Virus record (IMG/VR): IMGVR_UViG_3300047557_002530
Origin: a virus
Lineage: Duplodnaviria > Caudoviricetes
DNA length: 64,000 nucleotides
Strand: one strand, 5' to 3'
Part shown: positions 1,923-23,741 of the stretch, piece after piece
Numbering within the stretch: position 1 is the stretch's first letter
How the letters are laid out: the number at the start of each line of letters is the position of its first letter
The notes under the pieces: model-generated
Seen by the model: the letters and a program-made list of their open reading frames with translations, nothing else
The model's database searches: none
What the model was told of the DNA's origin: nothing
Translations under genes and position numbers: made by a program

Positions 1923-2031
1923 TATAAATAAAAATGTCTGTCGAAACTGCAATCTCTACGGACAAAGGATTAGGTGCTCTTTGGAGCACCTTTTCTGTTA
2001 TAAATAGTAATGCAGTTTCGACAAGATTACT
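1923..2031 (+). ncRNA. candidate sRNA and dual late-promoter cassette upstream of the GIY-YIG gene (copy 1)
   Basis: TATAAATA 1923-1930; stem 1935-1941/1958-1964; terminator hairpin 1973-1990 plus TTTT; TATAAATA 1999-2006; 1939-1951 is the exact reverse complement of 2011-2023. Confidence 0.65.
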
Positions 2032-2688
2032 ATGACTACTCATAGTCCAAGAATTTATACTTACAAAATTACCTTTGAAGAAGTTCCATATTACTATTAT
2101 GGAGTTCATAAGGAAAAGAAATATAATGAATATTATATGGGTTCTCCTTATACTCACAAATGGTGTTGGGAACTTTACACACCAAAGAAGCAGATACTTC
2201 AACTTTTTCACTTCACAGATGAAGGTTGGTTAGAAGCACAAGAAGTTGAGAAAAGATTAATCAAACCTTTTTATAATACAGATAAATGGTGCTTGAATGA
2301 AAATTGTGGAGGTAGATTTTCAATAGAACATCAAAGAAAATCGGGACAAAAAGGTGGTAAAATATCAAGAGAATTATTACTTGGAGCACATTCAATTCCA
2401 GGCAATCAAAAATATTGGTTACAAAAAAATAAAGAAGATAAAATTGGAATATTTTCATTATCACCAGAGGAATTGAGTAAATATGGAAAAATAGGTAGTG
2501 AAAAAGCAAGAGAGCAAAATGTTGGTATTTTTGCTATGACTAAAGAACAGAGAAGTGAAGCAGGTAAAAAATCAAATTCACAAAAATGGATGTGTCTTGA
2601 AACTGGGTATATAACAACATCTGGACCACTATCTTTATATCAAAATAAAAGAGGAATAGACATTACTAAACGAGTGAGAGTATCATAA
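2032..2688 (+). CDS. GIY-YIG (Seg-like) homing endonuclease
   Basis: RIYTYKITF...YYYYGVH...YMGS, downstream catalytic E and LNEN; basic repetitive C-terminus. Confidence 0.85.
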   Translation: MTTHSPRIYTYKITFEEVPYYYYGVHKEKKYNEYYMGSPYTHKWCWELYTPKKQILQLFHFTDEGWLEAQEVEKRLIKPFYNTDKWCLNENCGGRFSIEHQRKSGQKGGKISRELLLGAHSIPGNQKYWLQKNKEDKIGIFSLSPEELSKYGKIGSEKAREQNVGIFAMTKEQRSEAGKKSNSQKWMCLETGYITTSGPLSLYQNKRGIDITKRVRVS

Positions 2689-7671: not shown

Positions 7672-8435
7672 CTGAACACAATCTACCAGAAAAGGATGAT
7701 GCTCCCTGGTTGAACACACGATATGATGGATTTATGACACACGAAGAAATGCTTGAAGAAGCAGCACGACGAGAAGCAATCGTAGCAAAAGTATCTGAAG
7801 AAGACTATCAGAAAGTCCAAAAAGAAGTAGCAAACAAAAAAGCACTAGAAGCAGTAAAAAAACTTTATGCTGAAAATGGCGATGCTCTAAAAGAACTTGC
7901 TGATATTGAAAAGGAGGAACGAATGGATGCTGTAAGAACTGCCATTGTTGGTATTGATAAGTATTCCGATGCTCTTAAAGAACTTTCTGAAACAGAAAAA
8001 GTGGAACTGCGAGCAGAACTTGAAAAGAAAAAGAAGGAAAACTTCCAACTGGTTTCTGATGCTTGTATGAAAGAATATGAGCAGAAGTATAATCGTGATG
8101 TATTCCCAGTAGATGAATACTGGGTGTATATGCTTTCTGAATATGGGGCAACGGGGGAAGGAAATACTGTTTGTATTATGATGACACAGGCAATTCCATA
8201 TGGCGCTGACTTTAGTGAAGAGAATAGGTATGTTCCTATCAACTCACAGCAATATCGTGCTGTGAGAGCATTCCACGAGCAGTTTGGCACTTGGCATCTT
8301 CATGGTCTCAGATTTCTCAGTAAAGAAGATTTCTTCACTGAATGTGCTTATTACATTCCTCCTGTGATGATGAAACTTTCTAACAAAAATTGCTTTAAAG
8401 AGTTTCATACCAAAGTTCACTACAACTTCTCATAG
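7668..8435 (+). CDS. hypothetical protein
   Basis: Long ORF with a coiled-coil N-half; stop touches E4. Confidence 0.8.
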   Translation: MTEHNLPEKDDAPWLNTRYDGFMTHEEMLEEAARREAIVAKVSEEDYQKVQKEVANKKALEAVKKLYAENGDALKELADIEKEERMDAVRTAIVGIDKYSDALKELSETEKVELRAELEKKKKENFQLVSDACMKEYEQKYNRDVFPVDEYWVYMLSEYGATGEGNTVCIMMTQAIPYGADFSEENRYVPINSQQYRAVRAFHEQFGTWHLHGLRFLSKEDFFTECAYYIPPVMMKLSNKNCFKEFHTKVHYNFS

Positions 8436-8513: not shown

Positions 8514-9270
8514 ATGAGCACTCTTGATGTAATCAAGTTCTTCACTCCATATGCAGAAAAAAATGAAAAAGGGGAAGTAGTTAGTATGACTTTCCCTTGG
8601 GGTTTTGTTATTGTTCTAATCCTTGTTACTTTATCCTGATGACTTATTCACTCAATCAAGAAGCAAAAGCATTCTCTTACACCCGTGAGGAACTCTTTGA
8701 GTGTATCACCAAGATTGTGGCACATCCACACAAAACCATCACAGAACACGACCAATCCCGTGCTCTTGCTATTATGATAGTTTTTGACGACTACTTCAGC
8801 AATTATACTCAAAGTGATAATAATGGTGGACATTGTGTTTATGAATGTGATGCTATGGATTTGACTGATTTTGTACGGTTCAAACTTTGTATTGATGATT
8901 ATGATGCTGTTGATGTTGATGAGGTTTTGAAATAAAACCTATATAAAAACGAAAACAAAGGAGAAAAAATGAAATTAGGAGATGTAATGCTCGCTGCAAT
9001 TTGTGGTCTTGTAATTGTAGTTTCAGTTGCTCATATTGAACCACATTTTTCAACTTCTAATGTAGAACAGAAAGCAAAATGAGTAAGTGGGTAAAGAATC
9101 CAGATGAAATTGTACTGGAGAATCTCAAAATGTTTCACTTAGAGAGTATGGATTCTAATGCTCTCTGGGTTGGTTGTTATACACAAGACAATAAAATCTA
9201 TCATCTAAATATCGTAACAAAAGATAATCAGTTGAATTATTTTTGGAGTGACGAAACTTGTGATAAATAA
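8514..9270 (+). other. small ORFs 8514-8639 (membrane), 8639-8935, 8969-9082 (membrane), 9079-9270
   Basis: Coupled ORFs downstream of E4; two have hydrophobic stretches. Confidence 0.65.
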
Positions 9271-9375
9271 TTGAACCTATTGAGAGTGCAATTTCATAGG
9301 TAAGATTGGGTGCTTTCGGGCACCTTTTCTATTATAAAGTATTATAAATACCTATGCACTCTCAATAGAATAAAA
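9263..9375 (+). ncRNA. candidate sRNA and dual late-promoter cassette upstream of the HNH-NUMOD3 gene (copy 2)
   Basis: ATAAATA 9263-9269; stem 9275-9280/9296-9301; TTCG-loop terminator 9309-9324 plus TTTT; TATAAATA 9343-9350; 9277-9290 is the exact reverse complement of 9355-9368. Confidence 0.65.
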
Positions 9376-10341
9376 ATGAACTATCTGAAGGTTTATTGTA
9401 ACCTCATTAGAAAAGCAGAGAATAGAACTTTATCTGAAGATTACATAGAAAAGCATCATACATTCCCAAAAAGTATCTTTGGAAAGAATAATAGAGTTGT
9501 TATGCTCACTGCAAGAGAGCATTACATCGCACATTTGCTATTAGAAAAAATTTGTATCGTAAGATATGGAATTGATGATAAAAGAACAAAGAAAATGAAT
9601 CTTGCTTGTTTTTTAATGAGAAGTCGTAGTGAAAAATACAATTCTCATTTATATGAACAAGTAAGAAAGAGATATAGTGAAAATATGAAGGAAAGAATGA
9701 AAGGTGAAAATAATCCAAGTTATGGTGTTCCTTGTAGTGAAGAGAGGAAACAAAAAATAAGAGAAAAACACTTGGGAAGAAAAGCATCTCAAGAAACAAA
9801 AAATAAAATGAGTATAACCAGAAAAGGAAGAAAGTTTAGAAGTTATATTAAAAATGGGAAAAGGTTTGGAAATTACTTAAAAATATATGATTTGCAGTTT
9901 AGAGAAATGTTTATTGAAATAGTTAAAACTTCTCATACTAAAACTGAAATTGTAAAAAGGTTAGAAAATAAAATAAGTTATAAATGTGTTGTTGGTTGGA
10001 TAAAGGAATTGAATTTAGATACTATTCATTTTACTGGAAATCTTGGACTAAAACATACAGATGAAGCAAAGGAAAATATAAAATTAGCAAAACTTGGCGA
10101 GAAAAATCCATTTTATGGAAAAACTCATACTGATGAAGTTAAATCCAAGATGAGTGAAGATAGAACAGGAGAAAAAAATGCTTTTTATGGTAAAACACAT
10201 AACCAAGAAACCAGGCAAAAAATTGGAGAAAAAAATAGTGAAAGTATGAAAGGTATGTTGTGGTGGAATGATGGACAAACTCAAAAAAGAAGTAGAGAAT
10301 GTCCTGGTGATGATTGGATAAGAGGTAGGTTAAAAAAATAA
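9376..10341 (+). CDS. HNH homing endonuclease with NUMOD3 repeats
   Basis: EKHHTFPKS...LTAREHYIAH; several NPFYGKTHTDE-type repeats; ATG start at 9376 rather than the track's 9310. Confidence 0.88.
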   Translation: MNYLKVYCNLIRKAENRTLSEDYIEKHHTFPKSIFGKNNRVVMLTAREHYIAHLLLEKICIVRYGIDDKRTKKMNLACFLMRSRSEKYNSHLYEQVRKRYSENMKERMKGENNPSYGVPCSEERKQKIREKHLGRKASQETKNKMSITRKGRKFRSYIKNGKRFGNYLKIYDLQFREMFIEIVKTSHTKTEIVKRLENKISYKCVVGWIKELNLDTIHFTGNLGLKHTDEAKENIKLAKLGEKNPFYGKTHTDEVKSKMSEDRTGEKNAFYGKTHNQETRQKIGEKNSESMKGMLWWNDGQTQKRSRECPGDDWIRGRLKK

Positions 10342-10345
10342 CAAA

Positions 10346-10403
10346 AGACACTTGAATAACTGGCACAGGACATCTCACACTCTCACCACTTCTGTGCTAT
10401 AAT
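10346..10403 (+). promoter_or_regulatory. promoter element E5
   Basis: AGACAC-TTGAATAA-CTGGCA; TATAAT at +52. Confidence 0.8.
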
Positions 10404-10426
10404 ACTGTCATAGTCACAAGACTCCT

Positions 10427-23053: not shown

Positions 23054-23124
23054 GGGGAATTAGTTAAACGGTATAACGGGTGCTTTGCAAGCACTTATTA
23101 GGAGTTCGATTCTCCTATTCTCCA
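23054..23124 (+). tRNA. tRNA-Ala (TGC)
   Basis: Full cloverleaf, anticodon TGC, G3:U70 alanine identity pair; CCA not encoded. Confidence 0.92.
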
Positions 23125-23669: not shown

Positions 23670-23741
23670 GGGCACATAGTTAAGCGGATATAACCTTCGC
23701 CTTCTAAGCGAATGTCCCTGGTTCGATTCCAGGTGTGCCTG
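23670..23741 (+). tRNA. tRNA-Arg (TCT)
   Basis: GGGCACA/TGTGCCT acceptor stem, TTCGC/GCGAA anticodon stem, TTCGATT T-loop. Confidence 0.92.

Follow-up and report, generated by a model that had tools for sequence, protein, structure and literature searches.

Two homing-endonuclease genes with a shared leader

The window, by which we mean the whole stretch of 64,000 nucleotides analysed here from a caudoviricete genome (IMG/VR record IMGVR_UViG_3300047557_002530), carries two nuclease genes on the plus strand, each preceded by a leader cassette of about 110 nt in which the same parts stand in the same order (Table 1). An outer late-promoter-like box (P1) is followed by a 5′ hairpin (hp1), an intrinsic terminator, an inner late promoter (P2) and a stretch of the 5′-UTR that is complementary to sequence in and around the hp1 loop. 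The two complementary stretches, here called the upstream arm (anti-UTR seed) and the downstream arm, differ in sequence between copy 1 and copy 2.

Table 1. Positions of the leader parts and nuclease genes in the window. P1, P2 and the terminators are predicted from sequence.
Feature	Position	Strand	Remarks
Copy 1 outer late-promoter-like box P1, TATAAATA	1923..1930	+	predicted short-RNA start near 1936
Copy 1 5′ hairpin hp1	1935..1964	+	stem 1935-1941/1958-1964
Copy 1 upstream arm (anti-UTR seed)	1936..1951	+	exact 13-nt core 1939-1951
Copy 1 intrinsic terminator	1973..1998	+	GGTGCTC-TTTG-GAGCACC then TTTTCTGTT, abuts P2; hairpin 1973-1979/1984-1990, TTTT at 1991-1994
Copy 1 inner late promoter P2, TATAAATA	1999..2006	+	predicted mRNA start near 2012
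Copy 1 downstream arm, predicted first bases of the late mRNA 5′-UTR	2011..2027	+	-21 to -5 from ATG
218-aa nuclease gene	2032..2688	+	ATG at 2032; phrog_314 homing endonuclease; GIY-YIG-like, putative
Copy 2 outer box P1, GATAAATA	9262..9269	+	
Copy 2 hp1 (CCTAT/ATAGG)	9276..9300	+	stem 9276-9280/9296-9300
Copy 2 terminator	9309..9328	+	GGTGCT-UUCG-GGCACC then TTTT; hairpin 9309-9324, UUCG loop
Copy 2 inner late promoter P2, TATAAATA	9343..9350	+	
Copy 2 downstream arm in the 5′-UTR	9355..9368	+	reverse complement of 9277-9290
321-aa HNH-type homing endonuclease gene, NUMOD3 repeats	9376..10341	+	ATG at 9376

Copy 1 had been described in an earlier note on this DNA, and all of the coordinates given there were borne out on reading the window sequence. 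The hp1 stem of copy 1 has 7 bp, including one G.U pair, and its loop holds the variable portion of the upstream arm. Positions 1939-1951 (TGTCGAAACTGCA) are the exact reverse complement of 2011-2023, and when the leader is folded as one RNA the pairing reaches 16 bp with one bulge (1936-1951 with 2011-2027). An ATG just past P1 of copy 1 begins a frame of 33 codons, whose end overlaps the nuclease start as ATGA. We rejected a role for this upstream ORF, as such a frame is rare and occurs in only 4 of the 98 leaders described below.

The same layout had been claimed for copy 2. The layout stands, but the outer box is GATAAATA, an imperfect counterpart of TATAAATA. The last three bases of this P1 and the A that follows them supply the TAA stop (9268-9270) of the upstream ORF 9079-9270. 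The upstream arm of copy 2 (9277-9290) lies in and beside the hp1 loop, and an extra degenerate box, TATAAAGT, is found at 9333-9340; a duplicated degenerate box of this kind is present in 15/98 leaders.

The product of the first gene had been labelled a GIY-YIG nuclease. It matches the homing-endonuclease family phrog_314 (5e-9); the GIY-YIG label is weakly supported. The protein has the motif RIYTYKI...YYYYG, and its predicted model has a beta-beta-alpha-beta-alpha N-terminus with weak rows for the UvrC GIY-YIG fold (E about 2). No Pfam or NCBIfam match was found for the 218-aa product, and its model, of moderate quality (pLDDT 68), had no significant match in the PDB. The 321-aa product, with its NUMOD3 repeats, belongs to the HNH-type homing endonucleases (phrog_655, 1.5e-37). 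Contigs from three unrelated metatranscriptome libraries matched positions 2393-2692 only, the 3′ third of the 218-aa gene, with 100% identity. This segment is probably a DNA-binding module common to many nuclease genes, and the matches are no sign that this locus is expressed.

Distribution and exchange of the leader

A pattern for the shared scaffold matched two places only, both in the window and in the whole 156-kb record, and gave no match in 100 shuffles. Homologues of both window genes in the Synechococcus phages S-SRM01 and B3 have the same layout with other arm sequences, and B23, a close relative, has the nuclease gene in common. When the copy-2 leader was searched by blastn against 50,697 isolate records, S-SRM01 alone was recovered; the covariance model described below adds B3. 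Among IMG/VR sequences, the complete layout was present in 49 of 53 distinct regions upstream of relatives of the 218-aa gene.

A scan for the junction between terminator and P2, made blind to genes, gave more than 120 sites among the matches listed. The earlier note had proposed checking whether leaders precede nuclease genes, and they do so at 64 of the 65 gene-blind sites with a downstream ORF among the matches listed. N-terminal clustering of these downstream nucleases resolved four large families and a small HNH family, and S-SRM01 contributes a family of EndoVII/HNH-like nucleases behind the leader. Altogether, 98 distinct leaders were gathered from IMG/VR contigs and the phages S-SRM01 and B3, with at least six nuclease families downstream. 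The covariance model suggested in the earlier note was built from these 98 leaders and detects 2-6 copies per genome: two in this genome, six in a 49-kb IMG/VR fragment, five in a complete 236-kb IMG/VR contig, six in S-SRM01 and three in B3. The six cassettes on the one 49-kb contig correspond to loci L076, L289, L291, L293, L295 and L297. A solo cassette with intact arms and no nuclease ORF behind it lies on the minus strand of locus L140 (around 8351-8369), and locus L117 carries a damaged cassette whose downstream arm is truncated.

The idea of a conserved scaffold held for the architecture of the leader but not for its sequence, since the scaffold sequence seen in the window is the commonest of several terminator versions. 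There were 57 seed alleles among the leaders, and one allele may occur with up to four different nuclease families. Leaders have evidently been shuffled, with an identical 11-nt seed allele (e.g., TGCCGTCTTAA or TGCGACTTACA) standing before four nuclease families. Judged from these sequences, the regulatory leader, besides the nuclease gene, behaves as an exchangeable module.

Late-promoter boxes flanking the terminator

The box TATAAATA is depleted in this genome, with 15 copies compared to about 38 expected, and 11 of the 15 copies directly precede plus-strand ORFs, including a baseplate wedge gene. It therefore behaves as a late promoter, and because it is rare in the genome and found mostly before plus-strand ORFs, the presence of two boxes per cassette is not due to chance. 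In other T4-like cyanophages, NATAAATA is a late promoter (PMC2984593). Several late promoters of this genome are abutted by the T-run of a terminator (CCCCTTTTTTTATAAATA and similar; e.g., G000 93223, 113331, and 148594), so the composite of terminator and late promoter is a general punctuation in this genome.

P2 is TATAAATA in about 95% of the leaders, with the profile T(94%)A(96%)TAAATA followed by N-T-A-A/T-T-G-C, and the downstream arm follows it at a distance of 2-5 nt. T4 late promoters have the box at -13 to -6 (PMC2988020), and this geometry places the predicted start of the late mRNA from P2 in the first bases of that arm.

P1 was scored in 91 leaders that had been selected without reference to it, and a P1 box was found in all of them (91/91). 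It takes the form TATAAATA in 24 leaders, AATAAATA in 24, GATAAATA in 16, CATAAATA in 9 and N-CTAAATA in 18. These variants (T/A/G/C-ATAAATA and N-CTAAATA) fit those of T4-family late promoters: A(-13) is the most frequent among natural T4 variants, and the late consensus of Aeh1 has a/gC at -13/-12 (PMC2988020). The spacer behind P1 is AT-rich. In 77/91 leaders hp1 starts 4-5 nt past the P1 box, which is the predicted +1. In 49/84 cases the upstream ORF has its stop codon in the box, and in the other 35/84 it ends before reaching the box. We rejected the possibility that P1 is kept as a stop codon alone: the box is always present although 35/84 ORFs end earlier, and a stop-codon role alone therefore fails to explain its invariance. 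Since P1 occurs in 91/91 leaders, fits the late-promoter variants and has hp1 at its predicted +1, it is plausible that P1 and the terminator make a separately terminated RNA of about 60 nt.

Covarying RNA structures

The earlier note had made covariation of seed and UTR among homologues a check of its proposal. The covariation proved to be strong, with pairing kept through the 57 seed alleles. In the 98-leader alignment, 90% of the cells of the long-range helix and the terminator are paired, compared to 37-55% in slid controls, and none of 500 shuffles attained the observed pairing values. Both sides have changed in 20 of the 22 pairs of the long-range helix and terminator, and variable seed positions show 3-5 pair types. 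Every leader has a predicted terminator, whose helix is 95% paired across leaders and has more G.U than A.C combinations (107 vs 13), so it is read on the sense strand.

The 5′ hairpin also covaries: across the 98 leaders 82% of its cells are paired, and both sides vary in 6/7 of its pairs. Covariation links the hp1 5′ strand both to the hp1 3′ strand and to the distal UTR, so that hp1 and the long-range helix (the lock) are alternative folds. The lock is the minimum-energy fold in 98/98 read-through RNAs, while the short RNA alone folds as hp1 plus terminator in 98/98, with the variable seed in the loop. Cognate arm/UTR duplexes have a mean energy of -22.0 ± 2.0 kcal/mol, compared to -10.9 ± 3.6 kcal/mol for non-cognate ones, and for 87/98 UTRs no RNA pairs better than the cognate one, which ranks best or tied best.

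The counts of G.U and A.C combinations on a MAFFT alignment gave no strand bias for the long helix (79 vs 73). By alignment-free energies, 87/98 leaders have a sense-strand duplex of greater stability than the corresponding antisense one, a result that argues for an RNA-level function on the plus strand. The long helix has a mean length of 15.7 bp. No clear Shine-Dalgarno sequence is present. In copy 1 the helix spans -21 to about -5, and over the whole family the distance from its end to the AUG is 5-16 nt.

A minimal lock and the genomic context

A third homing endonuclease is encoded in the same genome at G000:C1:96724-97334 (L298:724-1334); the gene starts at G000 96768, and its 188-aa product is a canonical GIY-YIG protein (TIGR01453, 3e-21). 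It is preceded by a perfect 14-bp hairpin (G000 96724-96770) with TATAAATAATAATG in the loop, ending 2 nt before the ATG. This minimal lock has no terminator, hp1 or outer box. It is kept with compensatory changes in 11 orthologous contigs, with a helix of 13-18 bp. P1, hp1 and the terminator always co-occur, and all three are absent from the minimal lock. At G000:C1:76813-76863, before a portal-like 499-aa gene, a 10-bp hairpin has GATAAATA in its loop, with TATAAAT directly before the ATG; therefore, the promoter-in-hairpin device is not confined to nucleases here.

Sigma70-type promoters lie behind both window nucleases: TTGAAA-17 nt-TATAAT at 2718-2746 behind the 218-aa gene (region 2689-2769), and a TATAAT at 10398-10403 behind the 321-aa gene (region 10342-10426). 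The two regions directly 3′ of the nucleases have a GACACTT...GGCAC motif in common. By their sequence they look like early promoter cassettes of the PeSL type that restart downstream transcription. The upstream ORFs are on the same strand as the nucleases, and the region has sigma70-type promoters, with the leader terminator intervening. The genes flanking the nucleases look, from their sequences, to be of early type. Nuclease-free alleles consist of tightly coupled small-ORF operons without box or terminator, so the cassettes are insertions into early-type gene strings. In two such alleles (L228:1690-2005 and L196:1200-2005) the small ORFs have overlapping stop/start signals (AAATGACTGAA repeated). 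The gene order around the 177-aa downstream gene varies strongly between contigs.

Proposed mechanism of the leader

Taken on its anatomy, the cassette is probably a portable expression leader for free-standing homing-endonuclease genes of S-SRM01/B3-like freshwater T4-type cyanophages. Its core seems to follow the logic of T4 I-TevI, segB and mobE, namely a translation-start lock with a late promoter inside, to which a terminator is added; anatomy, covariation and the T4 precedent together make this the reading we favour, and we hold it to be reasonably probable. Polymerase coming from upstream early genes would mostly halt at the terminator. Any read-through RNA would carry both arms and form a helix of 15-20 bp enclosing the terminator hairpin. 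Some 17 nt at the start of the UTR would be buried in this helix, which stops 5-16 nt short of the AUG, and the nuclease would remain untranslated, presumably by occlusion of the ribosome site. Late in infection, a gp55-type polymerase would start at P2 inside the loop, and the resulting mRNA, beginning at the downstream arm and lacking the upstream arm, would be translatable.

Three parts would be added to this core: the terminator nested in the lock, the covarying hp1 that competes for the same strand, and the outer box P1. From P1, a compact RNA of ~60 nt (hp1 plus terminator) carrying the anti-UTR sequence may be fired. The most economical role for such a putative RNA would be to damp late expression through trans pairing at the 5′ end of the P2 mRNA. 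An efficient terminator would leave a cis lock few read-through RNAs to control. Action purely in cis also leaves unexplained why P1 is found in 91/91 leaders flush with a covarying hp1, and why P1, hp1 and the terminator co-occur and are jointly absent from the minimal version. Together, these parts have the look expected of an independent transcription unit of ~60 nt.

We consider it possible, with some reservation, that each cassette produces a late RNA of ~60 nt directed in trans, by base pairing, at the 5′ end of the mRNA for its own nuclease. As the regulator and its target would be fired by the same promoter class from the same DNA, the output might be pulsed or independent of genome copy number. 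A stronger proposal takes the silencing in trans put forward in the earlier note as the main function, with an independent late RNA of ~60 nt silencing the cognate P2 mRNA or capping nuclease synthesis and the cis helix being secondary; the RNA would then resemble an antisense regulator or an RNA antitoxin, encoded in tandem with its target on the same strand. This stronger proposal draws on the invariance of P1 in accepted T4-family variants with an AT-rich spacer (PMC2988020), on the placement of the covarying hp1 at the predicted +1, on the fold of the short RNA with its seed in the loop in all 98 leaders, on the preference of 87/98 UTRs for the cognate RNA and on the joint absence of P1, hp1 and terminator from the minimal, cis-only version. 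Moreover, a late promoter that makes an arm-bearing RNA when P2 fires has no obvious use if the lock acts in cis only.

However, trans silencing as the main function appears rather unlikely. P1 is less consensus-like than P2 and may be kept partly as the stop of the upstream ORF (49/84) or as a cassette boundary. The covariation fits pairing in cis and in trans alike, the same pairing forms in cis in every read-through RNA (98/98, minimum-energy fold), and the established T4 precedent acts in cis (PMC2988022). In the same genome a minimal version, which can act only in cis, guards the third nuclease. A P1-hairpin-terminator module without a nuclease gene was not found in this genome, and the window seeds had no target besides their own UTR in the 156-kb record at ≤1 mismatch. 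The earlier note had also envisaged guide-like orthogonal pairs, a notion that did not hold up: each window seed matches its own UTR only, and the same allele serves up to four nuclease families, so the partners are not nuclease-specific. We also set aside within-genome orthogonality as evidence. Seeds are distinct within each of five genomes, which is expected by chance with 57 alleles.

Two further explanations fare worse than the lock with an internal late promoter. In the first, the leader would be a processing or stability signal, with RNase III or RNase E cutting the read-through or P1 RNA at the 15-20 bp helix and thereby releasing or destroying the nuclease mRNA, or with the hairpins mainly protecting RNA ends. 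With a mean of 15.7 bp the helix comes near the length of an RNase III substrate, transcripts of segB, segG and Aeh1 mobE are known to be processed by RNase E (PMC2988022), and a 5′-flush hairpin with a 3′ terminator is a typical pair of stabilisers. We nevertheless regard this explanation as improbable, given that no sequence feature specifically indicates a cleavage site, that the late promoter inside the loop is left unexplained and that the helix of the minimal version is just 13-18 bp long. In the second, the arms would act as DNA inverted repeats, either operators bound by the nuclease, as I-TevI represses its own late promoter through a homing-site-like operator (PMC2988022), or recombination sites of a mobile cassette; the position of each arm just downstream of a late-promoter box and the exchange of leaders between nuclease genes would suit it, but it is the least probable of all, because one arm allele serves up to four unrelated nuclease families, complementarity rather than sequence is kept (3-5 pair types per position), the sense duplex is the more stable one in 87/98 leaders, and an hp1 5′ strand that covaries with two alternative partners is a property of RNA.

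Relation to known systems

Translational locks of the T4 family are known for I-TevI, I-TevII, I-TevIII, segB and Aeh1 mobE, and also for T4 e, soc, 39, 25 and 26 (PMC2988022). According to Edgell, Gibb and Belfort, the initiation region on early or middle read-through RNA is masked by a structure, and the late promoter is so placed that late RNA comes without the inhibitory strand (PMC2988022). The leaders described here resemble these locks in that their targets are homing-endonuclease genes of T4-type phages, that sequence further 5′ would pair with the translation-initiation region when the RNA comes from upstream, and that a TATAAATA late promoter between the arms would yield a late mRNA without the 5′ arm. 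Of such locks, the minimal form (G000 96724-96770) is a textbook case. The cassette differs from these locks in several respects. Its loop also contains a complete intrinsic terminator, its upstream arm is part of a separate covarying hairpin, which competes with the lock, a second late-promoter-like box stands flush upstream, and its helix has no clear Shine-Dalgarno sequence. In addition, it is one sequence family found with at least six nuclease families on over a hundred contigs. The core logic is thus already known from T4, and what is new is the nested terminator, the 5′ hairpin, P1 and the wide reuse.

PeSL cassettes are likewise short composite terminator/promoter motifs repeated through variable regions (PMC2839356, PMC4122927). 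They are also associated with the swapping of adjacent genes (PMC4122927), and here one leader allele is joined to different nuclease ORFs. In contrast, PeSL elements have a sigma70-type early promoter and no anti-UTR arm, whereas the cassette has late boxes of the TATAAATA type, a putative silencing helix and a tie to nucleases. The joining of a sigma70-type early promoter to a stem-loop terminator that marks PeSL was not found in the cassette.

A further comparison is with type I toxin-antitoxin systems. In hok/sok, the mRNA of a harmful gene is closed by long-range intramolecular pairing, as the read-through RNA would be here. If the short RNA acts in trans, a second likeness would be that a small structured RNA ended by a terminator and coming from the same locus binds the initiation region. 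Unlike those systems, whose product is a small membrane peptide, the cassette would control a DNA nuclease; its putative RNA would lie in tandem with the target, on one strand, rather than antisense or divergent, and no logic of differential stability or addiction is evident.

For cyanophage S-PM2, Millard and colleagues (2010, cited in PMC10690425) reportedly described an antisense RNA, CfrI, that links psbA and the homing endonuclease F-CphI. Both cases associate a non-coding RNA with a homing-endonuclease gene in a T4-like cyanophage. CfrI is said to be a true antisense transcript, made from the opposite strand and overlapping the genes, whereas the candidate cassette RNA would be a sense-strand, upstream RNA of about 60 nt with a seed of 11-17 nt.

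A match to a described Rfam family had also been raised as a possibility, and no family was found to match the cassette. At gathering scores, Rfam gave nothing in the window but two tRNAs, which are plus-strand genes at 23054-23124 and 23670-23741 (65 and 63 bits), and with E up to 1 it gave nothing in the two cassette regions but a chance snoRNA row. A search of the literature on RNA regulators of phage homing endonucleases gave no such leader, in agreement with the view that the arrangement is undescribed. The genome paper of S-SRM01 makes no mention of promoters, terminators or hairpins, and leaves the cassette undescribed.

Most of what is known about the control of selfish nuclease genes comes from a few T4 and Aeh1 cases. 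The cassette provides a large natural data set on how selfish nucleases are kept harmless, with 57 co-varying seed/UTR alleles, and its occurrence in the cultured phage S-SRM01 makes it testable there. Should P1 give rise to a trans-acting RNA, RNA control in phages would gain a new arrangement: a selfish nuclease gene carrying a tandem same-strand regulator, in dozens of seed/UTR alleles that are naturally orthogonal and would offer ready-made orthogonal RNA-UTR pairs.
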